From Burkholderiaceae bacterium (GTDB lineage: Bacteria; Pseudomonadota; Gammaproteobacteria; Burkholderiales; Burkholderiaceae_D), in NCBI GenBank assembly GCA_049514215.1, contig JBEKVI010000021.1:1-64000 (forward strand): 64,000 nucleotides of DNA. Reading direction: 5' to 3'. The notes under the pieces are model-generated. The model had not been told where the DNA came from and ran no database searches. It saw only the letters and a program-made list of their open reading frames with translations. The translations under genes and the position numbers were made by a program. This document shows positions 28,838 through 60,105 of the stretch, piece by piece (the stretch's first letter is position 1; the number at the start of each line of letters is the position of its first letter).

Positions 28838-28838
28838 G

Positions 28839-41460: not shown

Positions 41461-41510
41461 GCGGGGTCGAGTTTCGGCTCAGCACAGCGGGAGCCGAAGG
41501 CAATGCACGA

Positions 41511-43951: not shown

Positions 43952-44443
43952 GTGAAGTGGAACGTCGTGGTTTTCTCCGGACTCATTATTCTGGGTCTGG
44001 GTGGTCCGGCCGCAGCACAGGTGGCCGTGTCTGCCGCAAGCGACCAGGAGGCTCTTCTGGTTTCGGGTGACGCGAGGCTTGCCGCAAACAAGCGGCTCGT
44101 CTACGACTTCTGGCGCGAGGTCTTCGAAGGAGGACATCTCGATCTCGCGCCCCAGTATCTCGCGCCCGGATACATCCAGCACAATCCGAACGTCCCCACG
44201 GGGCGTGAAGGCTTCGTTCTCTTTTTCTCCAAGTTTGCCAAGCCCAAGCCCACCGAGGCGCGCATCAAGGCACCTTTGGTCGCGATCGTCGCCGAGGGTG
44301 ATCTGGTGGTCTTTAGCTTTGCCCACGAACTCGCTGATCCCAAGGATGCCTCGCATCACTACACGACGACCTGGTTCGACATGTTTCGCGTGGCCGACGG
44401 AAAAATCGTGGAGCACTGGGACCCCGCCGAAATTAAGCACTAA
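43952..44443 (+). CDS. Secreted SnoaL-like/NTF2-fold protein (ester-cyclase-like)
   Basis: Signal peptide MKWNVVVFSGLIILGLGGPAAAQ. Core YDFWREVFEGGHLDLAPQYLAPGYIQHNP. Confidence 0.6.
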   Translation: MKWNVVVFSGLIILGLGGPAAAQVAVSAASDQEALLVSGDARLAANKRLVYDFWREVFEGGHLDLAPQYLAPGYIQHNPNVPTGREGFVLFFSKFAKPKPTEARIKAPLVAIVAEGDLVVFSFAHELADPKDASHHYTTTWFDMFRVADGKIVEHWDPAEIKH

Positions 44444-44568
44444 TCCTCCGGGCGAGGTGCCTAAGGGGTCCACGGCCCCCGGTTCACCGCAGCCTTTAAA
44501 TCAGCCGGGCGACCAGAGGGACGTTTCGGGAGCGCGTCACAAGCGTTCGGGGATGGTTCTGCCGCAAT

Positions 44569-44584
44569 TGGCATGAACTCTGCT
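44569..44584 (+). promoter_or_regulatory. Candidate sigma54 (-24/-12) promoter TGGCAT-N6-TGCTT upstream of the allophanate hydrolase gene
   Basis: GG at 44570-44571 and GC at 44582-44583 are 11 nt apart as in the TGGCAC-N5-TTGC consensus. ATG at 44621. Confidence 0.4.
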
Positions 44585-44620
44585 TGTGTTCCATGTGGTA
44601 TACCAGTCGGCGCCTCCCCC

Positions 44621-46357
44621 ATGCCCCTATCGCTTCCCCTGCAGGAAAAGCTGCGGCACTTTCATGAAAGTGCCGATCATGCAGCTCCTTCGATCTGGAT
44701 TACGCGCGGGCCTCAGTATCTGCTTGCCAACGCGAGTGATCAGGGTGGGGCGCTTGCCGGCAAGCTCGTGGCGGTCAAGGACAATATCGATGTCGCCGGC
44801 TTTCCGACGACGCTGGCGTGCCCGCCCATGACCTATCAGCCCACGCGTTCGGCGCGGGTCGTGGAGCGCCTGGTTCAGGCGGGGGCGCTCGTCGTGGGCA
44901 AGACCAATCTTGACCAGTTCGCCTGCGGATTGGTCGGCACCCGCTCTCCCTATGGTGCCGTACCCAATGCCTTTTTGCCCGAGTACATCAGCGGCGGGTC
45001 GAGCTCGGGTTCGGCCGTGGCCGTGGCTTTGGGACTGGTCGACATTGCGCTCGGTACCGATACGGCAGGCTCAGGCCGAATCCCGGCCGGCTATAACAAC
45101 ATCGTGGGGCTAAAGCCCTCGCGCGGCCTAATTAGCGCCCGCGGTGTCTTTCCCGCTTGCCAGCATCTCGACTGCGTCTCGATCATGACGCGCGAGGTGG
45201 GATTGGCGGCCGAGGTGTTAAGGGTTTGCGCGGGAGCCGATCGCGAAGACCCGTTCTCCCGGGCGCTTCCCCTTTTGCCCGGGTTTGTCGCCGAATCCTT
45301 CCAGTTCGGGGTACCCGGTGCCAAACAACTGGAGTTCTTCGGCGACGCCTTGTCTGCCGAGGCCTTTGGCCGGGCGCGGGCGCTACTGGCCGGGCTTGGC
45401 GGGCGCGAGAATACGATCGACTTTGCGCCTTTGGCCAAGGCCGCTGACGCGCTCTACGAAGACGCTTGGGTGGCCGAGCGCTATGCAGCCATTAGGTCCT
45501 TCTTCGATCGTCAGCCCGAGGCCATCGATCCGGTGGTGCGCGCCATTATCGAGCGCGGCAGGCACCATTCTGCGGCAGATCTCTTTGACGCGATGGTGCG
45601 CATGGGCCACTGGCATCAGCAGGCCCAAGCCCTCTGGGACGGGCTCGACGTGCTGGTGGTGCCTACGGCGCCTAACCACCCGACGATTGCCGAAGTGCAA
45701 AGCGATCCCGTCGAAACCAATCGACGTCTGGGCGTCTACACCAACTTCGTCAATCTCCTGGATCTGGCGGCGGTCGCCGTTCCGGCATCGATGCGTCCGG
45801 ATGGCCTTCCTTTCGGGATCACGCTCATCGGTCCTGCTGGCAGCGAGTGGCGTCTGTTGGATCTGGCGAAGCGCATCCACGCCGCCACGGGGCTTGCGGG
45901 AGGATTGGTGGGCGAGCCGGAAGTCTCCACCGGACCCATGGCACGCGCGCCAGGCGCGATCGTCCGGGTGGCAGTGGTGGGCGCGCACCTCGATGGACTG
46001 CCCTTAAACGGGCTCCTACGCTCGCGGGGCGCGCGACTGGTGTGCCTGACGAGCACGGCTCCCGTCTATCGCCTCTACGCGCTTCAGGGAACAAGGCCCG
46101 CCAAACCGGGACTCGTGCGCCAGGGCGCATCCGGCAAGGCCGGGCTTGCGATCGAAGCCGAGATCTGGGAGCTGCCCACGGCGCACTACGGTGCCTTTGT
46201 CGCCGAGATTCCGGCGCCTTTGGGCATCGGCATGATCGAGATGGCCGACGGCAGTCGCGTGCAGGGCTTTCTGTGCGAAGCAGCGGCCGTCGAGAACGCG
46301 CTCGACATCTCCCATTTCGGGGGCTGGCGCGCGTACCTGAAGCATTCGAGCACATGA
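44621..46357 (+). CDS. Allophanate hydrolase (AtzF-like: amidase-signature domain + C-terminal allophanate-hydrolase domain)
   Basis: Amidase signature GGSSSGSAVAVALG...GTDTAGSGRIPA. About 130-aa C-terminal extension (VGAHLDGLPLN...) typical of AtzF. 578 aa. Confidence 0.8.
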   Translation: MPLSLPLQEKLRHFHESADHAAPSIWITRGPQYLLANASDQGGALAGKLVAVKDNIDVAGFPTTLACPPMTYQPTRSARVVERLVQAGALVVGKTNLDQFACGLVGTRSPYGAVPNAFLPEYISGGSSSGSAVAVALGLVDIALGTDTAGSGRIPAGYNNIVGLKPSRGLISARGVFPACQHLDCVSIMTREVGLAAEVLRVCAGADREDPFSRALPLLPGFVAESFQFGVPGAKQLEFFGDALSAEAFGRARALLAGLGGRENTIDFAPLAKAADALYEDAWVAERYAAIRSFFDRQPEAIDPVVRAIIERGRHHSAADLFDAMVRMGHWHQQAQALWDGLDVLVVPTAPNHPTIAEVQSDPVETNRRLGVYTNFVNLLDLAAVAVPASMRPDGLPFGITLIGPAGSEWRLLDLAKRIHAATGLAGGLVGEPEVSTGPMARAPGAIVRVAVVGAHLDGLPLNGLLRSRGARLVCLTSTAPVYRLYALQGTRPAKPGLVRQGASGKAGLAIEAEIWELPTAHYGAFVAEIPAPLGIGMIEMADGSRVQGFLCEAAAVENALDISHFGGWRAYLKHSST

Positions 46358-46403
46358 TGGGATTCCTTTTTTCCAACGCCGGCCTTCCACAGAAGACATC
46401 ACC

Positions 46404-47435
46404 ATGACCGATACAAACGATGATTTGGGTGTGCGCTGGAAAAGCGGCGATGTGCGGACGGGCCGTCGGCGTTTTGTCGGACTTGCAGGCGCGTCAGCCG
46501 CCGTCGCCTTGGCGCCTTGGCGCGCAGCGCGCTCCGAGTCGGGCACCAAGGTGCGCATCGGCTACTGGCCGATCGCAGCGGGGCTGCCGTTTTACGCAGC
46601 TCTCGAGAAGGGCTACTTCAAGGAGGCCGGCCTTGATGTCGAAGGGGTGAAGTTTGCCGGTGCGCAGCAAGTGATGGAAGCGATGCTTTCGGGGCGCTGC
46701 GACGGCAGTGCCAATGGCACGGGATCGGCCAATCTCGCCATCGGCGAGATCGCCTCGCCTGGCCTGTTGAAGATCTTCGCATCGAATCCGAGCAACGCGA
46801 GCGCGGTCCTCGACGAATTCCTGGTGGCCAGCGCAAGTCCCGTGAAATCCATCTCCGAACTGAAGGGCAAGAGGGTCGGCTCGGGTCCGGGCATCCAGAA
46901 CGTGACACTGGCCAAGGCCGTGCTCGAGAAGGCCGGCGCAAGCGGAGCCACGGTGGTGGAGTTGCCCATCGCAGCGCACGTCGGTGCGCTGGCTGCCGGG
47001 CAGATCGATGCGGTGTACACGCTCGAGCCCACAGGTACGGTCGGGCGTCTTGCCGGATCCACGCGCATCCTCGAGCCCGGCGTCATCGCCCACTATGTCC
47101 TGGGCGATCCGCAGGCACCGTGGTTCGGCGGTTCGGCCTCCCTGACGTCGTCATTCATCAAGGACCATCCGGCGGAGACGAAGGCGTTTATCGCGGCCTA
47201 TGCCCGCGGCATCGATCTGGTCAGAAAGGACCCCAACGAAGCGCGCAAGTATCTCAAGGGGTATACGGCGATCGACGGAAGCCTGACCCAGGAGGTGCCG
47301 CTGGCAGCCTATAAGCTCTCGACCGAGTTCACGCATTCCGACGTCGAGATGTTCCAGAAGTTCTTCGACCTTTTCTCCGACAAGGGTATCTTCAAGTCGC
47401 GCGTACTGGTCGAACCGATGCTCTATAAGGGATGA
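46404..47435 (+). CDS. ABC transporter substrate-binding protein, NitT/TauT (NMT1/SsuA-like) family
   Basis: Tat-like signal RRRFVGLAGASAAVALA. NMT1-like fold. Confidence 0.75.
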   Translation: MTDTNDDLGVRWKSGDVRTGRRRFVGLAGASAAVALAPWRAARSESGTKVRIGYWPIAAGLPFYAALEKGYFKEAGLDVEGVKFAGAQQVMEAMLSGRCDGSANGTGSANLAIGEIASPGLLKIFASNPSNASAVLDEFLVASASPVKSISELKGKRVGSGPGIQNVTLAKAVLEKAGASGATVVELPIAAHVGALAAGQIDAVYTLEPTGTVGRLAGSTRILEPGVIAHYVLGDPQAPWFGGSASLTSSFIKDHPAETKAFIAAYARGIDLVRKDPNEARKYLKGYTAIDGSLTQEVPLAAYKLSTEFTHSDVEMFQKFFDLFSDKGIFKSRVLVEPMLYKG

Positions 47436-48265
47436 CCATGGAGACTTCCAGTGGCGATCTGGTGGCACCCGAAGCGTTAGCGCAAAAGCCGGTGAGACGA
47501 TTCACCCTGGGGTCGGTTGCGACCGCACTCATCCCGCTTCTGGGGCCGCTTGCGCTTTTCATCGTCTGGGACGTCATGGTGCGTGCCCGCATCGTCAGTC
47601 CCGTCCTTTTACCGCTACCCCTGGCCACGCTCGTCACGCTCGTGACGGGCATGTTCTCGGGCTCGCTGCTTCAGGATTTCGGCTACACCCTCTTGCGCAC
47701 TCTGGAGGCCTTTGGTCTGGCCGCAATTGTGGGCGTGCCCCTGGGCGTTCTTTTGGGCAGTAACGAGCGCGCCTATCGCAGCGTGGAATTCCTGATTGAC
47801 TTCTTCCGATCCACGCCCTCGTCGGCCCTGATCCCGCTGTTTCTCATGATCTTCGGTGTCTCCGACATCAACAAGGTCGCCATCGCCGCATTTGCGGCAC
47901 TCCTCGTCATCCTCTTTAACAGCGCCTATGGCGTCATCAATGCGCGCAAGCAGCGCGTCATGGCCGCTCAAGTCATGGGCGCCTCGCGCTGGCAGATCTT
48001 CCGGGACGTCCTCATCTGGGAGAGCCTGCAGCCGACTTTCGTGGGCCTGCGCAGTGCCATCTCGATGGCCTTGGTCATCGTCATCGTAGCCGAGATGTTC
48101 ATCGGCTCCGAAAACGGGCTCGGCCATCGCATCATCGATGCGCAGCAGGTACTGAACGTGCGCGACATGTATGCGTCGATCCTCGCCGCCGGAGGCCTGG
48201 GATATGCGCTCAACATCCTTTTTCTCGTGCTCGAAAAACGCATCGTCCACTGGAGCGGCAGATAG
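47432..48265 (+). CDS. ABC transporter permease, NitT/TauT family
   Basis: Six TM segments. ATGA overlap with the upstream binding-protein gene. Confidence 0.8.
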   Translation: MTMETSSGDLVAPEALAQKPVRRFTLGSVATALIPLLGPLALFIVWDVMVRARIVSPVLLPLPLATLVTLVTGMFSGSLLQDFGYTLLRTLEAFGLAAIVGVPLGVLLGSNERAYRSVEFLIDFFRSTPSSALIPLFLMIFGVSDINKVAIAAFAALLVILFNSAYGVINARKQRVMAAQVMGASRWQIFRDVLIWESLQPTFVGLRSAISMALVIVIVAEMFIGSENGLGHRIIDAQQVLNVRDMYASILAAGGLGYALNILFLVLEKRIVHWSGR

Positions 48266-48267
48266 TC

Positions 48268-49086
48268 GTGCGTCCCGTCAATCCCCCCCTAGCCGATACC
48301 ACCCCAACCCCGGTGTTTGTCCCGGGGCCGCCCGGAACACACATTACCATCCGCGGGCTCACCAAGTTCTTCGCGGGGCGGCCCCTCTACCAGAACTTTG
48401 ATCTGGACATTCCTAAGGCCAGCATCGTCTCGGTGTTTGGGCCCAATGGATGCGGAAAGTCGACGCTCATCAACATGATCGCCGGGCTCATTCCGATCGA
48501 CTCGGGCTCGATCCTGTTCGACGGAAAATCGCTCGCCCAAACGAAGATCGGCTATGTCTTTCAGAACTACCGCGAGGCGCTTTTCCCGTGGCTGCGCACG
48601 ATCGACAACATTGCCTATCCGCTGCGTCTGGAGGGCAAAACGCGCGCCCAGGTCGAGCAGCGCGTGGCCGAACTGGTGGCCTCGTTTGACGTCAAGTTCG
48701 ATCTGCACCGCTATCCCTACGAGCTCTCCGGCGGCCAGCAGCAGACCGCCTCCATCATGCGGGCTCTTGCTCCCCAGCCGGAAGTGCTCTTTCTGGACGA
48801 ACCCTTTTCGGCACTGGACTTCGAGATGACCCTGTTCATCCGCGAAAAGCTCCAGGAGGTCTTCATGGCGACCGGCACCACGATGATGCTGGTCTCGCAT
48901 GACCTCGAGGAGGCCGTCTACCTGGCCGACCAGGTTCTCCTGTTGACCAAGCGCCCCACCCGCATTGCCGAAATTCTGACCTACGCCGATCACCGTCCGC
49001 GCACCGTCGAGACACTCTCGGCACCCAGTTTCATCCATACCAAGGCCAAGAGCCTTGAAATCTTCCAGCGCGAAGTCCGCCGATAG
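48268..49086 (+). CDS. ABC transporter ATP-binding protein, NitT/TauT family
   Basis: Walker A GPNGCGKST, signature LSGGQQQ, Walker B LFLDEPFSALD. Confidence 0.85.
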   Translation: MRPVNPPLADTTPTPVFVPGPPGTHITIRGLTKFFAGRPLYQNFDLDIPKASIVSVFGPNGCGKSTLINMIAGLIPIDSGSILFDGKSLAQTKIGYVFQNYREALFPWLRTIDNIAYPLRLEGKTRAQVEQRVAELVASFDVKFDLHRYPYELSGGQQQTASIMRALAPQPEVLFLDEPFSALDFEMTLFIREKLQEVFMATGTTMMLVSHDLEEAVYLADQVLLLTKRPTRIAEILTYADHRPRTVETLSAPSFIHTKAKSLEIFQREVRR

Positions 49087-49101
49087 AAAGACACGATCCC
49101 G

Positions 49102-49284
49102 ATGCAGCCCAGTGAATACGAAGAGTACGTGGCCGCCGCCTTAACGCTTGCGGGCTATTCGTTTGATGCGCCGCAGCGCGCGTTGATCGCGGCCGAGTTC
49201 GCGCGCATCGCCGGCATCGCCGCCGACTTTGTCGACGAACCCCTGGCCGTGGAGCTCGAGCCGATCACGCTGTTTCGTCCATGA
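49102..49284 (+). CDS. Small (60 aa) AtzG-like subunit partner of the downstream amidase
   Basis: 60-aa ORF whose stop overlaps (ATGA) the amidase start. Position and size match AtzG of atzG-atzE-atzH operons. Confidence 0.5.
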   Translation: MQPSEYEEYVAAALTLAGYSFDAPQRALIAAEFARIAGIAADFVDEPLAVELEPITLFRP

Positions 49285-50729
49285 CTGTGACGACCGCCCA
49301 GCAAATCGGCGCGGCGATCCGTGTGGGATCCATCAGCGCGAGCGCGGTCGTGGAGGATTGTCTGGAACGCATCGCAAGGCGCGATCCGGTGCTCAACAGT
49401 TTTACCGAGGTCACTGCCGAGCGCGCGCGCCGTGAGGCGGCCGAGATCGATGCCCTGGCGGCCCGGGGAGCTGCGCTGCCGCCGCTCGCCGGAGTACCGT
49501 ATGCGGTGAAGAATCTGTTTGATGTCGAGGGGGTGATCACGCTCGCCGGGGCCAAGATCAATCGCGACCGCGCGCCTGCCAAGGCCGACTCGGTGCTCGT
49601 AGGACGCATGCGCGCGGCCGGCGCCATCCTGGTTGGCGCGCTCAATATGGATGAACATGCCTACGGCTTCACCACGGAGAACACACACTTCGGGGCGACG
49701 CGCAATCCGCATGATCCTAGCCGGACTGCGGGCGGCTCTTCCGGAGGCTGCGGAGCCGCGGTGGGCGCCGGACTCGTTCCGATTGCGCTGGGCTCGGACA
49801 CCAATGGTTCGATTCGCGTGCCGTCCTCGCTTTGCGGCGTCTTTGGTCTGAAGCCAACCTATGGCAGGCTGCCACGTACCGGAACGTTTCCGTTCGTGCA
49901 CGGCCTAGACCACCTCGGACCCTTTGGGGCTTCGGTGGGCGATCTCGCCTTGTCTTACGATGCCATGCAGGGTTTTGATGCGGGCGATCCGGCCTGCGCA
50001 CCCCGTGGCTTGGAGCCGACCTTTGCCGCCGTGCGGCGCGGTGCGCCGCCTCCCGACGGAGAACGCATGGCCGTCTTGGGCGGACACTTCGAGCGATGGG
50101 CGTCTCCACGGGCGCGCGCGGCCACTGCTGAGGTCGCGGCTGCTTTGTGCGTCACGCACCGGGTCGAATTGCAGGGGGCCAACCAGGCCCGTGCCGCGGC
50201 CTTCATCACCACCGGCTCGGAGGGCGGCGCACTGCATCGGCATGCCCTCATCGAGCGCTACGCCGAGTTCGAGCCGCTCTCTCGCGACCGGCTGGTCGCA
50301 GGCTCGCTCATACCGGCCAGTTGGTACATCGCAGCCCAGCGCATCCGCGCGCGCGTCTTAAGTGAGGCACTTGCCCTGTTTGAGCAGTACGAGGTGTTGA
50401 TTGCGCCTGCGACGCCCGTCTGTGCGCCGGTGCTGGGCACCGAGTGGCTCGAGATCAATGGCCAGCGGGTTCCCGCGCGCGCAAGCCTGGGGCTACTGAG
50501 TCAACCGATCTCCGCACTGGGACTGCCGGTCTGCACCGTTCCGATCTGGCCTAGCCTGGTGCAAGAGAGCGATCCCGCGGACCGGCCGCGGCCTGCCCAG
50601 GACCCGGACGGTCATCTTCCCCTCGGTGTGCAGATCATCGCGGCTCCGTGGCGAGAAGACCTGTGTCTGATGGTGGCAGCCCGCCTGGAGGCCTTGGGCA
50701 TCGCGCGTTGCATGAGCCCCTTGAGCTAG
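49281..50729 (+). CDS. AtzE-like amidase (1-carboxybiuret hydrolase family; Ser-cisSer-Lys amidase signature)
   Basis: [68 protein letters not shown]. Close to AtzE as I recall it. Confidence 0.7.
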
Positions 50730-50740
50730 AGGACCGATCC

Positions 50741-51124
50741 ATGGAAATCAATCGACCCGAAGTCTTAGCCGAGGTCACAGCGGCCTTTGAGAGCTACGAG
50801 AAGGCCCTCGTGGGCAACGATGTCGCCATGCTCGATCGCCTGTTTCGCGATGCGCCCGAGACCCTGCGTTACGGCGCCACCGAGAACCTCTATGGCTTTG
50901 CCGCCATTTGTGCGTTTCGCGCCGGTCGCTCGCCGCAGGGCCTCAAGCGACGGGTGCTGCGCTGCGTGATCACGACCTACGGACGCGACTTCGCCACAGC
51001 CAACATCGAATTCCAGCGCGAAGGCCAAAGCGCGGTGGGTCGTCAAAGCCAGACCTGGGTGCGTTTTGACCTGGGGTGGCAGGTGGTCGCAGCACACGTG
51101 AGTTTCCTTGCGATGGCGGCCTGA
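50741..51124 (+). CDS. AtzH-like NTF2-fold protein (DUF3225)
   Basis: 127 aa ([28 protein letters not shown]...). Immediately follows the AtzE-like gene. Confidence 0.55.
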
Positions 51125-51126
51125 AG

Positions 51127-51864
51127 ATGCGCATTGCGGCACCCAAGCGGCGCGATCCAGGCGAGCCCACGCTCGCCGACCAGGCCTACGAGCGCATCAA
51201 GGCGGAGATCTTCGATTTCGAGCTGGTCCCGGGCGACCGTTTCTCCGAAGCCGAACTTGCGCAGCGCCTGGGGATGTCGCGCACCCCGGTGCGCGAAGCC
51301 TTAAGCCGGCTGCAGCGCGAAGGCTATCTGGAAGTCCATTTCAAAAGCGGCTGGTCGGTCAAACCCTTCGATTTCGAGCAGTTCGAGCATCTCTACGACT
51401 TGCGCATGGTCTTGGAGACGACCGCAATCCGGCGCCTTTGCGAGGGAGCGGAAACGTTGATTCTGGCCGAGCCGATCGAGGAGCTCAAACGCATCTGGCT
51501 CGTCCCCAAGGAAGGCCGGGAAAGTGAGGGCTCCAAGGTCGCTCGGCTGGACGAGAACTTTCACGCCGCCCTGGTCGAGGCGGCCGGCAATCCCGAAATC
51601 GCGCGAGTACACAGAGCCGTCACCGAGCGCATCCGCATCATCCGGCGCCTGGATTTCACCCAGGCTGCGCGCATCGACAGCACCTACGACGAACATGCCC
51701 AGATCCTGCGCGTGGTGCTGGCGCGGCGTGCGCCCCAGGCCGAACTCCTTTTGCGTTCGCACATCGAACAGAGCAAAGCCGAGGTGCGCAAGATCACGCT
51801 TCACAAGCTCTATACGGTGCGAGCCGCCTCGGCCGAGCGCCATCGCGTCAAGCCCGAACTCTGA
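51127..51864 (+). CDS. GntR-family transcriptional regulator (FCD-type C-terminal domain)
   Basis: HTH GDRFSEAELAQRLGMSRTPVREAL. 3-nt gap after the AtzH-like stop. Confidence 0.8.
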   Translation: MRIAAPKRRDPGEPTLADQAYERIKAEIFDFELVPGDRFSEAELAQRLGMSRTPVREALSRLQREGYLEVHFKSGWSVKPFDFEQFEHLYDLRMVLETTAIRRLCEGAETLILAEPIEELKRIWLVPKEGRESEGSKVARLDENFHAALVEAAGNPEIARVHRAVTERIRIIRRLDFTQAARIDSTYDEHAQILRVVLARRAPQAELLLRSHIEQSKAEVRKITLHKLYTVRAASAERHRVKPEL

Positions 51865-53172: not shown

Positions 53173-53458
53173 AGAGTGGATAGACGTCACGCGTCCTTCG
53201 GTTGGCCTTTCTCGATCTTTTTCGAGTTGCGTTGTAAGCGAGATATTGTCATTGTTTTTCAGCCCGCTCGAACGCCAAGATGAAAAGAGTGCGCAGAGGC
53301 ATCCGCTTTTGCGCGTCGCAAAGACCTCCAGGGTGTCGTGCTCGCCGGTCACCCCCAAAACTCGTCCGGCTACAATCATCCCAGGTGTCCGGGATCGGAA
53401 GATTCGGCCGTTTTGAAGAGCTGCGCGGGCCCGCCCCTATCAAACGAGGAGTCAGACC

Positions 53459-53848
53459 ATGGCGATACAAGGTATGAGCCACTTCACCGTCCTGACGAAT
53501 GACGTGCCGGCGACCGAGCGCTTTTACTGTGATCTTCTCGGTCTTGAAGTAGGCTGGCGTCCGGATTTCAACTTTCCGGGGCTCTGGTTGTACTCCGCCG
53601 GTGTCCCCATTCTCCACGTCATTGGCGGCCGTACGGAGGCAGAACTCCGAGCTGGCGTCATCGATCACATGGCGTTTGACGCCGTTGACCTTCCGACCAC
53701 TGTCGAACGACTGAAGAACCAAGGCGTGAAATACGAGCTGCGCCGGACCGCAGGAAGCGCCCAAGGAATCTGGCAACTGTTCTGCTTTGATCCCAACGGC
53801 GCAAAAGTTGAACTCGATTTCAAGGCAAGTGAATCGCCGCCTGCCTGA
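53459..53848 (+). CDS. VOC/glyoxalase-bleomycin-resistance family protein
   Basis: 129 aa (HFTVLTNDVPATERFYCDLLGLEV...HMAFDAVDL). GAGGAG RBS. Confidence 0.7.
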   Translation: MAIQGMSHFTVLTNDVPATERFYCDLLGLEVGWRPDFNFPGLWLYSAGVPILHVIGGRTEAELRAGVIDHMAFDAVDLPTTVERLKNQGVKYELRRTAGSAQGIWQLFCFDPNGAKVELDFKASESPPA

Positions 53849-53892
53849 GAGCCTAAGACGCGCCGATTCGACACCCGGGATGGCAAGACGGC

Positions 53893-54573
53893 CTAGACCG
53901 TGACCGGGCCAAGCGCTTCCTCTAAGGCCGACAACGGGGCGGTCCATCCCACGATGGCGCCCTGGGCCGTGATCATCTCGAGGGTCGCTTTCTTGAAGGC
54001 CGGGAAATAGCTCTCGGTTGCGTCCTCGATGAGGAGCCCGTTATAGCCGCGATCGTTGGCCTCGCGCATGGTGGTCTGCACGCACACTTCGGTCGTCACG
54101 CCGGCAAAGATCAGGTGCGTGATCTCGCGCGCGCGCAGCACCTGCTCGAGTGGCGTGGCGTAAAAGGCGCCCTTACCGGGCTTGTCGATGACGAGTTCGC
54201 CAGGCTTCGCCGCGAGCTGGGCCACGATGTTATTGCCCGGCTCCCCGGTGATGAGCACGCGTCCCATCGGGCCCGGGTCCCCGATGCGAAGCGAAGGTGA
54301 TCCGCGCAGGCGCTTGGCCGGCGGGCAGTCCGAAAGATCGGGGCGGTGGCCCTCGCGGGTGTGGATGACGGCGATCCCGTGCGCACGGCAGGTTTCAAGA
54401 AGCGCGAAGACCGTCGGCACGATCGCCTCGAGCCGGCTGACGTCATTGCCCAGCGACGCGCCAAATCCGCCGGGCTCGACGAAGTCGCGCTGCATGTCGA
54501 TGACGATCAATGCCGTGTGGGCGGGGTCGAACGCGTATTCGAAAGGGGTGGCTGCAAGGCGGCGCTCGGTCAT
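53893..54573 (-). CDS. Isochorismatase-family cysteine hydrolase (BiuH/TrtA/RutB-like), paralog A
   Basis: Catalytic triad context [12 protein letters not shown] (Asp), DKPGKGAFY (Lys), [12 protein letters not shown] (Cys). 226 aa. Confidence 0.75.
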
Positions 54574-54590
54574 GGCAAATCGATTCCGGA

Positions 54591-56189
54591 TCAGTGTGTC
54601 AGCGCGGGAGATTCCGAGTGCCCGGCCATGTGTCGCCCGATCTCGCGCATGTCGGCATTCTGGACATCAGTCTCATAGACCAAGCGGCCCTCGGACATCA
54701 CGGCGATCCGGTCAGCGAGCTCGAAAAGCTCGTCTAAGTCCTCGCTGACCAAAAGCACCGCCGTCCCGCCGTTGCGTGCCGCGATGATGCGATCGTGAAT
54801 CTCGCTGACGGCGGCGAAATCGAGGCCGAACACGGGATTGGCGACAATGAGCAAGGATACCGGAGCCGAAAGCTCGCGCGCGAGCACTGCGCGCTGCACG
54901 TTGCCTCCCGACAACGTTCCGATGGCGGCCTTGGGCCCCTGCGTTTTGACTTTGAACTCACGAATCCAGCGTTCGGCCTGTGTGCGCGCCGCGCGCCGGT
55001 TAAGCCAAATGCCCATTGCCAGAGGGGCCTGGTCGAAGTTGCGTAGCGCCATGTTGTCGGCCACGCTCATGCGGGCGACGCAGGCGTTTTTCAGGGGCTC
55101 TTCGGGCAGGCTAAAGACGGCGAAGCTGCGGATCTCGTCGCGCTTGGAGTGGTACGGCAGGCCATCGACTGTGATCGATCCCGAACTGGGTTCGCGTTGA
55201 CCGATCAAGGCTTCCACCAGTTGACGCTGCCCGTTGCCCGACACGCCGGCGATGCCGAAGATCTCTCCCGGCCGAACCGAAAGGCTCACCTTCTCAACGG
55301 CCGGCATGCCGATGTCATCTTCGACGACGAGATCGGTGACCAAAAGACGTGGTGCGACATCGGCCTTGAGCGGCGTTTTCTTGGTGTCGGACTGCGGAAT
55401 CTGGCGCGAGCCCACCATCATCTCGGCCATGCGCTGCGCATCGAGCTCGGCAATCGGTGCGCCGCCCGCGAGCCGGCCGCGCCTGAGCACCGTGACGGCG
55501 TCGGCAAAGCCCAGGACCTCGCGAAATTTGTGCGTGATCATGAGAACCGAAAGCCGGCCCGACTGTGTCATCTCCTTGAGCATCCCGAGCACTTCGTCGG
55601 CCTCCTCGAGCGTGAGCACGGAGGTGGGTTCGTCTAAGATCATGAAGCGGCTCTTCAGATAGAGCTGCTTTAGGATCTCGAGCTTTTGTTTCTCGCCTGC
55701 GGCCAACCTTGAGACGGGGCGGTCGAGCGGCACCTGGAACGGGACCGATTGCATGAAGGCCGCGATGCGCTCGCGCTCGTCGCGCCAGCGGATGACCGCG
55801 GGCACGTCGGCACGCGACATGACGAGGTTTTCCGTGGCCGTCATGCTGGGTACGAGGGTGAAATGCTGGTAGACCATGCCGATGCCCAACGCGTGCGCAT
55901 CCTGGGGGGTCGAGATGACCTGTTCGCGGCCGTCGACCATGATCTGACCTTCGTCGGCCAGTTGGTAGCCGACGAGACATTTGACGAGCGTGCTCTTGCC
56001 GGCTCCGTTTTCGCCGAGCAAGGCGTGAAACGATCCCGGCATGACCCGCATCGAGACATCCTCGAGCGCAGCAAATGAGCCAAAGCGCTTGGTCAGGTGC
56101 AAGACTTCGACTCCGACGGCGCGCTCGCTTGGGACCGCCGGATGGGTCTCGCTGCTGACCACCCTGAGCATTTCCGAAGGAATCGACAT
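54591..56189 (-). CDS. ABC transporter ATP-binding protein with duplicated ATPase domains (CUT2/BMP-type)
   Basis: Two Walker A sites (GENGAGKST; GVSGNGQRQ) and two signature/Walker B sets. 532 aa. Confidence 0.85.
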
Positions 56190-56196: not shown

Positions 56197-56868
56197 CTAG
56201 AGGGCGACGGTCAGTTCGGCGCTGGTTGCGACGGCACCGAACACGCCGCCTTGCATCTTGATCATGTGCAGCGCTGCCCGATGATTGCCCGCGTCGGTGG
56301 CCGCGGTGCAGTCGGCCAGCAACAGGCATTCGAACCCGCGATCGTTGGCGTCGCGCATGGTGGTATGGACGCACACGTCGGTGGTGATGCCCGTGAGAAT
56401 CAGGTTGCGGATGCCACGCGTGCGCAGCACCAGTTCCAGGTCAGTCGCGTAGAACGAGCCCTTGCCGGGTTTGTCGATCACGATTTCGCCGGGATGGGGC
56501 GCAAGCTCGGCGATGATCTCCCAGCCCGGCTCACCGCGCACCAGGATCTTGCCGCAAGGACCCGGATCGCCGATACCGGCACCGATCTGGCGCGAGCGCC
56601 AGCGCTTGTTGGCGGGCAGATCCGACAGATCGGGACGGTGGCCTTCACGGGTGTGGATGATGAGATAGCCCGCCTCGCGCATGGTCGCAAGCAGCGACTT
56701 GATGGGGCCGATGGGCGCGCGCGTGAGCGCCAGATCGTAGCCCATCTTGTCGACGTAGCCGCCTTCGCCACAGAAGTCGGTTTGCATGTCGATGATGATG
56801 AGCGCGGTGTTGCCGGGACGTAGATCGCCGTCGAAGGGCCACGGATAGGGGTCGGCTTGAACGAACAT
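56197..56868 (-). CDS. Isochorismatase-family cysteine hydrolase (BiuH/TrtA/RutB-like), paralog B
   Basis: [33 protein letters not shown]. 223 aa. Start overlaps the upstream permease stop (TAATG). Confidence 0.75.
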
Positions 56869-57788
56869 TATTTTTGGATCGAAAGTTCGCCGGGGGCTCC
56901 GGCCAGCGCGCGGGTGCGCGAGGAGGTCATGATCATGATTGCCAGGGTGAGCGCGTAGGGTGTCGCGTTAAAGAGGTAGTAGCCGCTCGTGATGCCGACC
57001 GACTGAAGTGCCGGACCCAGAGCTCCCGCACCCCCGAAGAGCAGGGCGGCCCAGAAGCAGTTCACGGGATTCCAGCGCGCGAAAATGACGAGCGCGACGG
57101 CGATGAGTCCCTGGCCGCTCGAGAGGCCCTCGCTCCAGCTGCCGGGGTAATAGAGGGAGAGGAAGGAGCCTCCGATTCCCGCAAAGATGCCGCCCACGCC
57201 GGTGCAGCCGATGCGCACGAGATTGACGCGGTAGCCCATGGCGCGCGCGGCTTCGGCGCTGTCTCCGACGATGCGGACCACCAAGCCGATGCGCGTCGTG
57301 CGAAATGCGTAGGCCAGCCCAATGGTCAGGACGATGCCGATCAAGAACAGGGGGTTGATCACCAACGCCGCGCGCAGTGGGGCCAGATCGCTCCAGTTTC
57401 CGAGCGCGAGCCCCGGAAGGAGCTTGGCCTGGGGCTGGATGAAGGGCTTGCCCAGATAGAACGCAAGCCCGGTCCCAAAGAGCATGAGTGCGATGCCTAC
57501 GGCGATGTCGTTGACGCGCTTGAGACTGCAGAGCATGCCGTGCAAAAGGCCAAAGAGTAATCCCACCCCGCCTGCGGCGATCACCCCCCACCAGGGGCTG
57601 CCGGAAAGATAGGAGATCGCATAGCCAGTCATGGCGCCCATGACGAGAATGCCCTCCAGACCCAGATTGATGCGTCCGCTGCGCTCGGTGATGCACTCAC
57701 CTAGGCTCACGAACAAGAAGGGCGTGCTCACGCGAATCGCGCCCGAGAAAATCGCCAGCGGCACGCCCCACCAGCCGATCCCGTTCAT
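56868..57788 (-). CDS. ABC transporter permease (BMP-family importer)
   Basis: Start taken at [16 protein letters not shown] (idx 31 of ORF 56868..57881). Multiple TM segments. ATGA overlap with the upstream permease. Confidence 0.75.
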
Positions 57789-58891
57789 GACGTGGCCTCC
57801 TTGGCTAAGGGCTGTGGCGTGGCCGCGATGCTCGTTGGGGCCGGCTTGGCCCAGTTGATGCGGCCGTAGAGCGTTTCGCAAGCCAGGATGAGCAAGAAGG
57901 CAATGCCCTCAAGAACGAGCACGGCCGCATCAGGCATGTCCAGACGCCGCTGCAGCATCCCGCCGCTGGCTGAAATGCCGCCCAGCAGGATGGCCACGGG
58001 CACGATGGCAATGGGATTGTGGCGCGCGATGAACGCGACCAGGATCCCGGCGTAGCCGTAGCCTGCGATGAGTGACGCGTTGGCCGCGCCATGGACGGCG
58101 GCGACTTCCACCGCGCCGGCCAAGCCCGCCGCAAGTCCTCCGAGCGCGCAGGCCAGAAGCACAAGCCCCCCGGTCGGAAGTCCCGCAAGCAGGCCCGCAC
58201 GCAGGTTTCCGCCAGCCACCCGCATGGCAAAGCCGATGGTCGTGCGATACACGAGGGCATAGGAGAGGATGCAGGCAATGATGCCAAAGCCCAGCCCCCA
58301 GTGGACATTGAGACCGGGCAGATTGCCCAGGCGATTCTCATCGCCAATGGGAAAGGTGGAGGGCTTGTTCAGGCTCGCCGGGTCGCGCAAGACACCTTCG
58401 ACCAAGTGATTGAAAAGGGCGATGGCGATGTACGCCAACAGAAGGCTCGAGATGGTCTCGTTGACGCCCCGGTAATGGCGCAGGCCGCCGGCCAACATGA
58501 TCCAGACCGCGCCCGTGACCATGCCTGCCAGAAGCATTCCGGTATCGACGATGAAAGCACCACTACCCGAGAGCAGATGTCCCATGACGGCAGCCGCAAG
58601 CCCGCCCAGAACGAGTGCGCCTTCTCCACCGATGATCATGAGTCCGACCTGGGCAGGCAGGGCGACACACAGCGCGGTGAGGATGAGAGGCGCAGCCCTC
58701 GAGAGTGTGTTCTGCCAGGAAAAGCCGCTCGCAAACCCGCCCCGGTAGATGAGTGCGTAGACCTCGAGCGGATCTTTGCCGAGTACCCAGACGAAAGCTC
58801 CAAAAAGAACGGCTGCCGCGCACAGCGCAATCAGCGGCACCGCGACCGCCTCGACAGCGGGTCCGAGCTGCGCTCTGCCGGGCCGTTCCAT
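57785..58891 (-). CDS. ABC transporter permease (BMP-family importer)
   Basis: 368 aa, 8-10 TM segments. Confidence 0.8.
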   Translation of the reverse strand: MERPGRAQLGPAVEAVAVPLIALCAAAVLFGAFVWVLGKDPLEVYALIYRGGFASGFSWQNTLSRAAPLILTALCVALPAQVGLMIIGGEGALVLGGLAAAVMGHLLSGSGAFIVDTGMLLAGMVTGAVWIMLAGGLRHYRGVNETISSLLLAYIAIALFNHLVEGVLRDPASLNKPSTFPIGDENRLGNLPGLNVHWGLGFGIIACILSYALVYRTTIGFAMRVAGGNLRAGLLAGLPTGGLVLLACALGGLAAGLAGAVEVAAVHGAANASLIAGYGYAGILVAFIARHNPIAIVPVAILLGGISASGGMLQRRLDMPDAAVLVLEGIAFLLILACETLYGRINWAKPAPTSIAATPQPLAKEATS

Positions 58892-58898: not shown

Positions 58899-60026
58899 CT
58901 AGATCTTGCCGACCACGCCGGTCACCAGATAGTTCATCTGCTCCAGAACCGGGTCCGTCTGCTGATAGGACGTGCCCGAGGCAATCACGGTCTTGCCCGC
59001 GTTGTCCACGAGGGGACCTTTGAAGATCACGAAGTCGCCCTTCACCATCGAGGCCTTGATGCCATCGGCGGTGCTGCGCGCCGTGGCGCTGGCGCCTGGT
59101 CCGTAGGGGGACATCTTGACGAAGCCCTCCTTGAGGCCGCCGCGCAGGAAGTTCTTCATCGGTGCGCCCGACATCGCGTCATTGACGTGTACGGTGTAGG
59201 GCGTAAGCCAGTTCCACTCCGCCCCCGTCAGATAGCCCTTGGGTGCGAGCGCGGACTGGTTTGCGTGGTAGCCGCACACAAAGATGCCACGCCGCTCGGC
59301 CGTCTCGACGATGACTTTCGGGCTGTCGACGTGGCACGTGATGACGTCGACGCCTTGGTCGATGAGACTGTTGGCCGACTCCGCCTCCTTCACGGGCAGC
59401 GACCAGTCGCCGGTGATAATGAGCTGGGTCGTGATCTTGGGATCGACGCTGCGCGCGCCCAGGGTAAAGGCATTGATGTTGCGCAGCACCTGGGGAATCG
59501 GTTTGGCGGCGATGAAGCCGAGCTTCTTGCTCTTGCTCGCATGGCCTGCGACGACGCCGTTGAGGTACTGGCACTCGTCGATGTAGCCGAAGTAGCTGCC
59601 GGCATTTTTGGGATGCTTGCCTTCGGTCCACATGCCGCCGCAGTGGGCAAAGCGCACCTTCGGATACTTGGCGGCCATGCGCAGCATGAAGGGGTCGAAA
59701 TAGCCGAACGAGGTCGCAAAGATCAACCCGGCGCCGTCTTGTTCGACCATCGAGGACATGGTGTTTTCAACATCGGTGGTTTCAGGTACCTTTTCCTGCT
59801 CGACCACGGTCACGCCGGGCAGCTTCTTGATCTGTGCGGCTGCCTGGGCTTGCGCCTGGTTGTAGCCGTAGTCATCGCGAGGGCCCACGTAGATCACGCC
59901 GACCGTGAGTTTGTCGGCGGCGAACGCGCGCGAAAGCGAAAGTGGACCGACCGCGCTGGCCGCTGCGCCCATCGCGATTTGCTTTAGCACAGCACGGCGG
60001 GACGGGCTCTTGGGCGATGAACTCAT
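58899..60026 (-). CDS. BMP-family (Med/PnrA-like) ABC transporter substrate-binding lipoprotein
   Basis: Tat-type signal SRRAVLKQIAMGAAASAVGPLSLSRAFA. BMP fold (LTVGVIYVGPRDDYGYNQA...). AAGGAGA RBS on the minus strand. Confidence 0.8.
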   Translation of the reverse strand: MSSSPKSPSRRAVLKQIAMGAAASAVGPLSLSRAFAADKLTVGVIYVGPRDDYGYNQAQAQAAAQIKKLPGVTVVEQEKVPETTDVENTMSSMVEQDGAGLIFATSFGYFDPFMLRMAAKYPKVRFAHCGGMWTEGKHPKNAGSYFGYIDECQYLNGVVAGHASKSKKLGFIAAKPIPQVLRNINAFTLGARSVDPKITTQLIITGDWSLPVKEAESANSLIDQGVDVITCHVDSPKVIVETAERRGIFVCGYHANQSALAPKGYLTGAEWNWLTPYTVHVNDAMSGAPMKNFLRGGLKEGFVKMSPYGPGASATARSTADGIKASMVKGDFVIFKGPLVDNAGKTVIASGTSYQQTDPVLEQMNYLVTGVVGKI

Positions 60027-60088
60027 GCCGTTTTCTCCTTATCCATGGAAAATAAAATCTGGGATACCAGACGGTGCGCAACATGGAA

Positions 60089-60105
60089 TGCAATAGGCAT
60101 GCCAG
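60089..60105 (-). promoter_or_regulatory. Candidate sigma54 (-24/-12) promoter CTGGCATGCCTATTGCA (minus strand) for the BMP-ABC/hydrolase operon
   Basis: Minus-strand read matches TGGCAC-N5-TTGCA with GG and GC 11 nt apart. About 60 nt upstream of the ATG at 60026. Confidence 0.5.

Follow-up and report, generated by a model that had tools for sequence, protein, structure and literature searches.

A two-operon locus of a Burkholderiaceae genome that probably serves the uptake and mineralisation of triuret and biuret

We analysed a 64-kb stretch of DNA (the window) from an uncultured Burkholderiaceae MAG. The initial annotation had described in it a cluster at 43952-51864, made up of an allophanate hydrolase gene (atzF), an ABC importer, atzG-atzE-atzH and a GntR regulator gene. 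Every named gene was found, all on the plus strand, and the genes from atzF to the GntR/FCD regulator form a single tight operon, with intergenic gaps of at most 46 nt and two 4-nt overlaps. The extent given for the cluster missed the trtA/biuH operon, with which the functional unit runs to 60104. Its start, 43952, was misplaced: at 43952-44443 lies an unrelated ORF, separate from the cluster, whose SnoaL-like product has a signal peptide and whose conservation was sought in related loci and not found. The first gene, atzF (44621..46357, plus strand; longest ORF from 44573), encodes an allophanate hydrolase with Pfam Amidase and AH_C domains, which scores 739.8 bits with NCBIfam TIGR02713 (cut-off 511) and 773 bits with NF006043, and matches PDB 4gyr (E 2e-149). 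We placed its most likely start at ATG 44621 because ATG 44573 falls within the -24 element of a sigma-54-type promoter.

The transporter claimed beforehand is present downstream of atzF, as genes for an NMT1/SsuA-like binding protein (46404..47435), a BPD_transp_1 permease (47432..48265, overlapping the binding-protein gene by 4 nt) and an ABC ATPase (48268..49086; Pfam ABC_tran, TauB-like matches, JGI gene call from 48313), all on the plus strand. The binding protein carries an RRRF twin-arginine signal, is predicted to be TAT-exported and matches Pfam NMT1 and NMT1_2. Its NCBIfam SsuA_fam score (106 bits) is under the cut-off, as are the TauC/SsuC-like matches of the permease; the NitT/TauT label is that of JGI, and the closest PDB entry reaches no better than E 2.8e-12.

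The following gene, atzG (49102..49284, plus strand, GC3 0.77), encodes a 60-aa non-catalytic partner of AtzE and is coupled to atzE (49281..50729, plus strand) by an ATGA overlap that we read directly at 49281-49284, as annotated. AtzG scores 23.8 bits with Pfam AtzG-like PF13318, just under the gathering cut-off of 24, and a profile built from 22 orthologous small ORFs matches AtzG of PDB 6c62_C over its full length (E 5.8e-8). Far from being unconserved, this small ORF recurs in 62 related loci, each time immediately before AtzE. AtzE is a Ser-cisSer-Lys amidase of the AtzE family and a putative 1-carboxybiuret hydrolase. It scores 641.8 bits with NF006631 (cut-off 461), its top PDB match is AtzE of Pseudomonas sp. 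ADP (6c62_A, E 7e-151), with which GGSSGG and an 11-residue motif align, and it is not nearer to GatA, which gives just 186 bits. Next, atzH (50741..51124, plus strand) encodes an NTF2-like decarboxylating amidohydrolase of the AtzH class (Pfam AtzH-like, DUF3225, 191.7 bits; PDB 6bjt, E 5.5e-49) that putatively converts 1,3-dicarboxyurea into allophanate. All 9 published pocket residues are kept, among them Arg66 and Arg96, at which TrtB candidates carry other residues. The operon ends with the GntR/FCD-family regulator gene (51127..51864, plus strand; Pfam GntR and FCD; JGI call of 245 aa), whose orthologues, 54-85% identical, occur in most related clusters, AtzEG type and TrtB type alike.

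A homologous trio of small protein, AtzE-family amidase and NTF2-like protein is found in hpxWXYZ of Klebsiella and other Enterobacteriaceae, and AtzG-AtzE-AtzH could be the equivalents of HpxX-HpxY-HpxZ, turning oxalurate, which arises from purine breakdown and from uric-acid oxidation, into oxamate. Indeed, 1-carboxybiuret and oxalurate are close structural analogues, the NTF2-like protein is 55% identical to its hpx counterpart with identical pocket residues in HpxZ, and AtzE shares 54% identity with HpxY of Klebsiella (putative oxalurate amidohydrolase) and 56% with AtzE of strain ADP, in a tree that leaves it inseparable from Klebsiella HpxY (bootstrap of the AtzE/HpxY split, 32%). NCBIfam also calls the 127-aa AtzH product 'oxalurate catabolism protein HpxZ' (196 bits, cut-off 135). 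However, this model gives AtzH of Pseudomonas sp. ADP an equal score (196.9 bits) and PGAP names the pADP-1 atzH gene hpxZ, so the name does not discriminate. Moreover, the HpxW/gamma-glutamyltransferase-family gene for oxamate is absent from Pfam scans of the window, the operon opens with an allophanate hydrolase, an enzyme that plays no part in degrading oxalurate, and the adjoining genes encode TrtA and BiuH instead of allantoin or hpx functions. We therefore regard an oxalurate pathway as very improbable here.

A second, convergent operon (53893-60026, minus strand) lies 2 kb downstream of the plus-strand row. It opens with bmpA (58899..60026), for a BMP/PnrA-family binding protein (Pfam Bmp, 142.9 bits), followed on the same strand by two BPD_transp_2 permease genes (57785..58891 and 56868..57881), biuH (56197..56868), the gene for the double-domain ABC ATPase of this BMP-type importer (54591..56189, two Pfam ABC_tran stretches) and trtA (53893..54573). 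The true start of the second permease may lie further downstream, since its longest-ORF start overlaps the upstream gene; the place of the ATPase gene between biuH and trtA is conserved. BiuH, a biuret amidohydrolase, scores 424.9 bits with NCBIfam NF050097 (cut-off 370) and is 76% identical to Rhizobium BiuH (PDB 6azo and 5bk6, E 4e-116). TrtA, an isochorismatase-like cysteine hydrolase predicted to act on triuret, has as top PDB matches 6xix, 6xj4 and 6xje (TrtA of Herbaspirillum sp. BH-1, E 1.4e-95, 68% identity), against just 223 bits with BiuH structures and 255.6 bits with the NCBIfam BiuH model, under its cut-off of 370. Its catalytic D/K/C triad is present. Six residues that discriminate TrtA from BiuH have been published (PMC7948467), and both proteins hold all of them in the correct state: TrtA has the specific FNAEYI set (6/6: F35, N41, A134, E160, Y187 and I205) and BiuH has YYSDTV.

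Both operons are preceded by a sigma-54-type promoter and then by the palindrome TGGTATNCCA. Upstream of atzF, the candidate -24/-12 promoter TGGCATGAACTCTGCT (44569..44584, plus strand), whose function is suggested by its consensus, is followed by the palindrome TGGTATACCA (44596..44605), a candidate operator for GntR that lies 16 nt 5′ of ATG 44621. Upstream of bmpA, the same arrangement is formed on the minus strand by the promoter-type sequence TGGCATGCCTATTGCA (60089..60104) and the candidate GntR operator TGGTATCCCA (60060..60069), 34 nt from the gene. The pattern TGGCAYN5YTGCW occurs just twice in the 64-kb window (0.27 expected by chance) and TGGTATNCCA in just two places (0.10 expected), one ahead of each operon. 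In related loci the sigma-54-type pattern is conserved 5′ of the first cluster gene, and the palindrome lies 5′ of AtzF, SBP1 or BmpA in L003, L077, L024, L030, L066 and Achromobacter loci. In all, the composite of promoter and palindrome recurs 46 times ahead of first cluster genes in the window and related loci.

Gene content and order, residue signatures, motifs and the conservation of these motifs were all observed directly, and orthology and context suggest what each enzyme, transporter and regulator would do. The locus is probably a two-operon regulon for the uptake and full mineralisation of triuret and biuret, which are linear oligomers of urea, and this regulon is probably under nitrogen control. 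AtzF, AtzE and BiuH exceed their NCBIfam equivalog cut-offs, and for AtzE, AtzH, TrtA and BiuH the best solved-structure match is in each case the characterised enzyme of that name. Substrates would enter through two ABC importers, one of BMP/PnrA type and one of NitT/TauT type, and TrtA would convert triuret into 1-carboxybiuret and NH3. This product has a half-life of about 20 min (PMC7948467), and AtzEG is the known carboxybiuret deaminase (PMC6219798); AtzE-AtzG may deaminate 1-carboxybiuret to 1,3-dicarboxyurea ahead of its spontaneous decarboxylation, AtzH would yield allophanate and CO2, and AtzF would release 2 NH3 and 2 CO2. The presence of BiuH alongside AtzEG looks redundant and counts against this reading. 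BiuH could convert into allophanate the biuret that is imported or that arises from spontaneous decarboxylation of carboxybiuret, avoiding a dead end. The GntR/FCD protein presumably sits on the palindrome of both operons until a pathway inducer appears. The initial annotation had favoured a ureide (such as carboxybiuret, biuret or triuret) over s-triazines, and the trtA/biuH operon, the matching promoter and operator motifs and the lack of AtzD all support it. As the TrtA/BiuH operon shares these motifs, the locus most likely takes nitrogen from triuret and biuret, not from triazine herbicides.

The absence of AtzD/TrzD from the window, also proposed earlier, held in Pfam scans of long, coding-looking ORFs across the 64 kb and in tblastn searches of all six frames with two AtzD-family proteins (E<=1), neither of which gave an AtzD match. 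The cluster might nevertheless supply the lower steps of cyanuric-acid (s-triazine) degradation, with AtzD encoded elsewhere in the genome and cyanuric acid as the main source of carboxybiuret. AtzD and TrtA yield the same product, our scope is 64 kb of the genome, atzD is part of the trtA neighbourhoods published for Herbaspirillum and Rhizobium, and two related metagenome loci (L135 and L114) carry an AtzD-family gene inserted after biuH and before the gene for the ABC ATPase. Against this, AtzD was found within 10 kb of AtzE in 0/80 genome loci and an AtzD-family gene in just 1 of the 32 TrtA-centred loci of at least 8 kb, and the regulon has a dedicated TrtA with a complete specificity signature. 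We consider this reading unlikely, and it is compatible with the use of triuret and biuret.

Related loci were sampled from three independent starts, AtzE, TrtA and the NitT/TauT-type binding protein, and the pairing of AtzE with TrtA was recovered from all three, in several gene orders. Around AtzE, a TrtA with the TrtA signature lies within 10 kb in 17/80 genome loci, in at least five gene orders; among full-flank AtzE loci carrying AtzF, 9/14 also have TrtA and 5/14 lack it nearby. Around TrtA, AtzE is present in 11/32 metagenome loci of at least 8 kb, and one locus centred on the binding protein (L170) has the whole layout of the window. The AtzH-like signature YRRRRFRQQ is present in 64/66 cases from loci with AtzE, while Arg66 is replaced in 10/11 AtzH-like proteins of TrtA loci without AtzE, the TrtB candidates, a class defined by locus context and not against a characterised TrtB sequence. 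This split fits two alternative carboxybiuret routes, AtzEG with AtzH or TrtB, and the window has the former.

In roughly 40 Achromobacter and Bordetella genomes, the NitT/TauT-type importer, AtzG-AtzE, AtzH and GntR occur with the same promoter and palindrome, joined by an FMN reductase, and no TrtA, BiuH, AtzF or AtzD was found within 10 kb. The AtzEG module may hence have another substrate. The importer, AtzG-AtzE-AtzH and GntR would then be a self-contained module for some other stable ureide taken up from outside, and the adjacency of trtA/biuH would reflect shared use of AtzF and nitrogen control, with no hand-over from TrtA to AtzEG. Furthermore, conservation of the binding protein is unusually high (at least 68% identity among the best 120 clusters, versus about 60% for AtzE), it accompanies AtzE in 49/80 loci and TrtA in just 3/32 TrtA-centred loci, and 1-carboxybiuret is too short-lived for an environmental ligand. 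On the other hand, Piscinibacter- and Rubrivivax-type loci fuse atzF-atzGEH to bmpA-biuH-trtA on one strand without this importer, and trtA comes immediately after atzE, atzH or gntR in loci of Casimicrobiaceae and Noviherbaspirillum. In the window itself, both operons share promoter and operator motifs, and AtzF, whose substrate is the product of AtzH, is present. An independent module appears unlikely.

The novelty implied by the initial annotation was too high, because beta-proteobacterial clusters of allophanate hydrolase-(ABC transporter)-atzG-atzE-atzH without atzD were already described, as 'unusual', by Esquirol et al. 2018 (PLoS One, PMC6219798). That paper is older than the discovery of TrtA and left their function open, whereas we can now identify the downstream 'amidases' as TrtA and BiuH and find promoter and operator motifs common to both operons. 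The atzDGEHF operon of Pseudomonas sp. ADP pADP-1 likewise runs atzG-atzE-atzH, its small atzG lying just before atzE, and also contains atzF; its AtzE (54-56% identity) and AtzH (65%) resemble the window proteins, all AtzH pocket residues are shared and the chemistry proposed after 1-carboxybiuret is the same. In contrast, the window lacks AtzD, has TrtA as its carboxybiuret source and possesses BiuH; atzF comes first, not last, with the ABC importer between atzF and atzG. Its regulator is of GntR/FCD type with a sigma-54-type promoter, unlike the divergent LysR-family gene of pADP-1, and its contig has no plasmid or mobile-element genes among its annotated genes, while the strain ADP operon lies on a catabolic plasmid. 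The triuret/biuret cluster trtA-biuH-trtB-atzF, with GntR and a BMP-type ABC cassette, is known from Herbaspirillum sp. BH-1 and R. leguminosarum 3841 (Tassoulas et al. 2020), and an Ideonella dechloratans plasmid (L168) has this characterised layout as bmpA-perm-perm-biuH-ATPase-trtA-atzF-'hpxZ'-gntR. The order from bmpA to trtA, the TrtA and BiuH signatures, AtzF and the orthologous GntR recur in the window. Differences are the decarboxylase slot between atzF and gntR, which is of AtzH class (Arg66 and Arg96 kept) and not of TrtB class, the addition of atzG-atzE and of a second, NitT/TauT-type importer, and the inversion of the atzF-to-gntR block, which consequently converges on the trtA operon.

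No published link from the AtzF-ABC-AtzGEH layout to TrtA was found in the literature. To our knowledge, the AtzEG/AtzH deaminase route had until now been known solely in Pseudomonas sp. ADP, as part of its cyanuric-acid operon. At this locus it would replace the TrtB decarboxylase route, with carboxybiuret supplied by TrtA and not by AtzD.

The locus consists of two convergent gene rows flanked by relA/spoT (41355-43898) and ppk (60360-62462), in a window whose G+C content is 60-65% and whose composition is unbroken at this point. The plus-strand row, in which intergenic gaps are at most 46 nt, comprises atzF (44621-46357), genes for an NMT1/SsuA-like binding protein with a TAT signal (46404-47435), an ABC permease (47432-48265) and an ABC ATPase (48268-49086), then atzG (49102-49284, 60 aa), atzE (49281-50729), atzH (50741-51124, encoding a 127-aa protein) and gntR (51127-51864). 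The initial annotation had recognized this row, and all of its gene assignments (AtzF, ABC importer, AtzG, AtzE, AtzH and GntR) hold, as judged from family matches and matches to the sequences of solved structures. It overlooked, however, the minus-strand operon located two kilobases downstream, and the layout itself had already been published. This second operon runs from bmpA, encoding a BMP/PnrA-type binding protein (58899-60026), through two permease genes (57785-58891 and 56868-57881), the isochorismatase-like hydrolase BiuH (56197-56868) and a double ABC ATPase (54591-56189) to a further isochorismatase-like hydrolase, TrtA (53893-54573).

The cluster had been proposed to start at 43952, but this position belongs to a separate gene (43952-44443) whose SnoaL-like product has a signal peptide and which lies between relA/spoT and the atzF promoter and is conserved in no related locus; a second SnoaL/DUF4440-like ORF is found at 10692-11441. 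The longest atzF ORF begins at 44573, but the gene very probably starts at 44621, because the ATG at 44573 falls within the -24 element of the promoter. Between the two operons, the stretch 51994-53892 contains an NHL-repeat lipoprotein gene (51994-53172) and about 720 bp of low GC3 without a credible ORF. This stretch looks like an insertion, since gntR abuts trtA directly in the syntenic metagenome-assembled genome L003. We rejected the NHL-repeat gene as a member of the cluster, given that it is not conserved with the cluster among the related loci, and also a minus-strand ORF (53249-53947) considered as a possible TrtB, the carboxybiuret decarboxylase, which has no family match and no homologue in any locus (GC3 of 0.61 versus 0.73-0.84 in the cluster genes compared). 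Elsewhere in the window, a set of genes for a circularly permuted ATP-grasp protein, an Alpha-E protein, a transglutaminase-like protein and a DUF2126 putative amidoligase (27293-36917) appears to be unrelated to the ureide locus.

AtzF scores 739.8 bits on TIGR02713 (cut-off 511) and 162 bits on the Pfam AH_C domain. AtzE exceeds the cut-offs of both AtzE family models, NF006631 (641.8 bits, cut-off 461) and TIGR02715 (621.6 bits, cut-off 425.75). Among solved structures it matches AtzE from Pseudomonas sp. ADP best (E 7e-151, 506 bits), with GatA far behind at 186 bits, so that the enzyme belongs to the AtzE family, as first proposed; the structure of AtzEG is said to come from Esquirol et al. 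2018 (JBC). The amidase-signature motifs, GGSSGG and an 11-residue motif aligned with 6c62_A, are intact. The junction of atzG and atzE, read directly, is an ATGA overlap. As a single sequence, the 60-aa AtzG scores 23.8 bits on the Pfam AtzG-like model PF13318 (gathering cut-off 24), and its phmmer search against the PDB returned chance matches only. A profile of 22 orthologous small ORFs matches AtzG (6c62_C) over positions 1-60 with an E-value of 5.8e-8, and a small ORF directly ahead of AtzE is kept in 62 related loci, which confirms the identity that had been suggested for this ORF.

The BiuH protein scores 424.9 bits on the NCBIfam biuret amidohydrolase model (cut-off 370) and shares 76% identity with the crystallised Rhizobium enzyme. 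TrtA stays below the cut-off of this model (255.6 bits); its closest solved relatives are the structures 6XIX, 6XJ4 and 6XJE of the triuret hydrolase of Herbaspirillum sp. BH-1 (E 1.4e-95, 68% identity). Tassoulas et al. described six positions at which TrtA carries F35, N41, A134, E160, Y187 and I205, and BiuH Y, Y, S, D, T and V (PMC7948467). At these positions the window TrtA reads FNAEYI and the window BiuH YYSDTV, and in both proteins the D/K/C triad (D24/K129/C162) and Q202 are intact. TrtA matches also occur in many enterobacterial clinical plasmid records (77 from Escherichia and 13 from Klebsiella, among others); in the one record examined, Klebsiella pneumoniae pINF319.2 (L169:44-3695), a biuH-ABC ATPase-trtA-gntR fragment with the TrtA signature FNMEYI lies beside IS elements. 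A third isochorismatase-like subfamily, with W-G-G-D-T/S-C at the TrtA/BiuH positions and scores below the RutB and BiuH cut-offs, is found beside atzG-atzE(-atzH) and a distant BMP-type ABC system in loci L021, L036, L038, L079 (Noviherbaspirillum) and L087:6442-7248, and may be another feeder enzyme for AtzEG. In the last of these loci, on a Paraburkholderia largidicola plasmid, its gene is followed by one for a 383-aa amidase.

The plus-strand row resembles the atzDGEHF operon of plasmid pADP-1, which is defined by the ring-opening amidohydrolase AtzD, and differs from it in having no such gene. We found no AtzD/TrzD by Pfam in the long, coding-looking ORFs across the window, and tblastn with AtzD of pADP-1 and a second ring-opening amidohydrolase gave no match at E<=1 in the six frames of the window. 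Likewise, no AtzD match (tblastn, E<=1) was obtained in 82 loci, that is, 80 genome loci and two short contigs with identical atzE. The absence of AtzD from the window is thus borne out and, together with the adjoining TrtA and BiuH operon, supports the earlier reading that the locus serves the use of a ureide and not of s-triazines.

The other known system to be weighed is the hpxWXYZ oxalurate cluster of Klebsiella, and here the proteins themselves are of little help. The window AtzE shares 56% identity with its counterpart in strain ADP and 54% with Klebsiella HpxY. In a neighbour-joining tree, HpxY fell outside all AtzE sequences in 64 of 200 bootstraps (32%), with a single HpxY sequence included since the underlying protein search returned only matches of at least 59% identity. 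AtzH matches the Pfam AtzH-like family (DUF3225) with 191.7 bits and structure 6BJT with an E-value of 5.5e-49, and contains all nine residues of the published pocket, Y22, R46, R63, R66, R73, F94, R96, Q106 and Q108 (PMC6219798). These nine residues recur in Klebsiella HpxZ and in PDB 2rcd, so we discarded the pocket as a discriminator between AtzH and HpxZ. We also discarded the NCBIfam HpxZ label as evidence for oxalurate catabolism, because the genuine AtzH of strain ADP scores 196.9 bits on this model and the window protein 196.0 bits. What sets the oxalurate cluster apart is HpxW, a gamma-glutamyltransferase-family oxamate amidohydrolase, and its purine/allantoin neighbours, none of which is present among the scanned ORFs of the window. 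As identity, tree and AtzH pocket all fail to set AtzE and AtzH apart from HpxY and HpxZ, the case for carboxybiuret as the substrate of AtzE rests on genomic context.

The HpxZ label extends further. RefSeq/PGAP names the characterised atzH of pADP-1 (L084:7368-7757) 'hpxZ, oxalurate catabolism protein HpxZ', as it does the corresponding gene in many plasmid records. The NCBIfam HpxZ 'equivalog' takes in AtzH and at least some TrtB candidates, including an Ideonella gene also labelled hpxZ, and automatic hpxZ names are therefore unfit for pathway inference. TrtB was reportedly defined by Aukema et al. 2020. It is the carboxybiuret decarboxylase of the triuret and cyanuric-acid-via-biuret pathways and is homologous to both AtzH and HpxZ (supplement of PMC12625717). 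Where AtzE is encoded in the same locus, the AtzH-like protein has the nine-residue pocket unchanged in 64 of 66 cases, as does AtzH of strain ADP. In TrtA loci without AtzE, the AtzH-like protein is encoded between atzF or trtA and gntR and shares 38-53% identity with its window counterpart. Of the 11 TrtB candidates defined by this context, 10 have C, S, T or V in place of Arg66, and about half have Arg96 replaced; the exception keeping Arg66 is L152. Candidate genes with Arg66 replaced (AtzH numbering) occur in L101, L117, L118, L123-L126, L144, L147, L151 and L168:11478-11879. In the Ideonella dechloratans plasmid cluster, bmpA-perm-perm-biuH-ATPase-trtA-atzF-'hpxZ'-gntR, the AtzH-like protein carries R66T. 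Such a loss of arginine would fit a substrate with one carboxylate (carboxybiuret) as opposed to the two-carboxylate 1,3-dicarboxyurea, and Arg66 may provisionally serve as a simple marker of the TrtB class versus the AtzH/HpxZ class. The window AtzH keeps Arg66 and Arg96 and is encoded directly 3' of atzE; by the Arg66 criterion, the window would provisionally encode the AtzH class and no TrtB. The uncharacterised structure PDB 2owp (Bxe_B1374 of Burkholderia xenovorans) has the same signature as the TrtB candidates (R66C, R96S). Another context for the AtzH family is found on plasmid p3 of Azospirillum brasilense Sp7 (L086, 7817-9375), where an AtzH-like gene follows that of a 393-aa amidase; neither AtzG nor AtzE accompanies it, xanthine-dehydrogenase-like genes lie upstream, and a DUF1116 (AllG-like) gene adjoins it.

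An AtzE-based search with one genome per species yielded 80 loci, the closest of which (L003, 75% identity) is fully syntenic, ppk included. TrtA lies within 10 kb of AtzE in 17 of the 80, with the signature FNAEYI in 16 and FNMEYI in one, and these loci show at least five gene orders: the convergent order of the window; in L077, a single long operon read in one direction; in Piscinibacter and Rubrivivax, a direct fusion of atzF-atzGEH to bmpA-biuH-trtA that lacks the NitT/TauT-type importer; in Casimicrobiaceae, atzF-ABC-atzGE(H)-gntR-trtA, with neither BiuH nor a BMP-type importer; and in Noviherbaspirillum, atzGE(H)-trtA. Full flanks are available for 60 loci, of which 14 contain AtzF and nine of these 14 also TrtA. 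Transport genes, a CN-hydrolase and amidohydrolases recur as unexplained neighbours in AtzE loci. Conversely, 32 TrtA-centred metagenome loci of at least 8 kb contain AtzE in 11 cases, BiuH in 25, AtzF in 12 and an AtzD-family gene in one. Two additional loci were found via the binding protein: L170, a 116-kb metagenome contig with the exact layout of the window, and L171, another such contig, whose layout resembles that of Casimicrobiaceae. In the metagenome loci L135 and L114, the bmpA-biuH-trtA operon is interrupted by a gene for a ring-opening amidohydrolase of the AtzD/barbiturase family, placed between biuH and the gene for the ABC ATPase. The L135 contig also carries atzE-atzH. On this ground some relatives may combine cyanuric acid and triuret entry points.

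The plus-strand importer consists of the NMT1/SsuA-like binding protein (NitT/TauT in the JGI label), a TauC/SsuC-like permease and a TauB-like ATPase, all scoring below the cut-off of every substrate-specific equivalog. No clue to the ligand of the binding protein came from solved structures, which are too distant, or from the names of homologues, which are generic only. The GntR protein combines an N-terminal GntR wHTH with an FCD domain. GntR-family proteins bind palindromes with a GT-N-AC core, and operons for nitrogen scavenging typically have sigma-54 promoters. The palindrome TGGTATNCCA, a candidate operator, occurs at two sites in the 64 kb (0.10 expected), 16 nt upstream of the ATG at 44621 and 34 nt upstream of the bmpA start. 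The sigma-54-type -24/-12 pattern TGGCAYN5YTGCW also has two sites in the window (0.27 expected), each 11-19 nt upstream of a palindrome. We counted 46 occurrences of the composite element across the window, genome and metagenome loci, preceding atzF, the NitT/TauT-type binding-protein gene or bmpA. We predict, from sequence and position, that TGGTATNCCA is bound by the GntR protein and that TGGCAYN5YTGCW acts as a sigma-54 promoter. We did not find the operator motif in the pADP-1, P. putida or Klebsiella clusters, nor ahead of bmpA in any of the 18 TrtA-centred metagenome loci examined, one doubtful match with one mismatch aside. An Rfam scan of 41000-62600 detected no riboswitch, guanidine riboswitches included; its sole match, BM-sr0117 within bmpA, was dismissed as chance (31.5 bits, gathering score 112). 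A scan for generic sigma-70 promoter and terminator consensus sequences gave no excess over shuffled sequence.

By orthology to the characterised enzymes (PMC6219798, PMC7948467), the observed gene content, signatures and motifs, together with their conservation, suggest the following route. Triuret would be taken up, TrtA would hydrolyse it to 1-carboxybiuret, and AtzEG would deaminate this to 1,3-dicarboxyurea; AtzH would then yield allophanate, from which AtzF would free the last two nitrogens. The half-life of 1-carboxybiuret, which breaks down to biuret, is about 20 min (PMC7948467). BiuH would turn biuret, whether imported or formed spontaneously, into allophanate, so that this decay would not be a dead end. 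Regulation of both operons would fall to the GntR protein together with a sigma-54 activator.

The NitT/TauT-type importer accompanies AtzEG rather than TrtA. In L004 (7017-14141) and about 40 other Achromobacter/Bordetella loci, this importer is found with atzG-atzE, gntR, atzH and an FMN reductase gene; one ORF tried as the Achromobacter 'monooxygenase' had no NCBIfam match. This version has the same sigma-54 promoter and palindrome, and no TrtA, BiuH, AtzF or AtzD within 10 kb, which leaves another native AtzEG substrate conceivable. One could go further and suppose that the highly conserved, TAT-exported importer, AtzG-AtzE, AtzH, GntR and the promoter/palindrome make up an ancient, autonomous module dedicated to some natural ureide, recruited independently by the herbicide-era atzDGEHF operon and the triuret clusters. 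We regard this as rather unlikely; if true, AtzEG would act natively on more than 1-carboxybiuret, and its original substrate may have been a different one.

With triuret as the proposed source of 1-carboxybiuret, the locus can be set against earlier work. TrtA has been known since 2020, as has the trtA-biuH-trtB-atzF-gntR-ABC context. Esquirol et al. 2018 reported, from Rhodoferax, Variovorax, Rhizobacter, Leptothrix and Methylibium, clusters of the type allophanate hydrolase-(ABC)-atzG-atzE-atzH that lack atzD, noted 'ABC transporters and amidase enzymes' downstream, and left their role open (PMC6219798). In the non-subscription literature searched, we found no paper linking TrtA to AtzEGH or reporting a common promoter/operator. 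What is new is a proposed TrtA-fed AtzEGH branch with putatively co-regulated BiuH, a variant of known pathways; the advance is incremental rather than a new type of system, since all component enzyme families were already known. Its practical by-products are the provisional Arg66 marker, a candidate operator and promoter, and a caution about the automatic HpxZ label given to genuine AtzH. The proposed route would give the triuret pathway a deaminating branch, the second beside the known TrtB/BiuH one. That atzG-atzE-atzH is widespread in bacteria without a cyanuric acid hydrolase has been a puzzle since 2018, to which this locus and its relatives offer a testable answer: a triuret hydrolase would feed unstable 1-carboxybiuret to AtzEG and AtzH, which would carry it on to allophanate. 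Triuret occurs as a contaminant of urea fertiliser and is also formed on uric acid oxidation, so that the 'herbicide' enzymes AtzEGH may have a natural role that predates herbicides.
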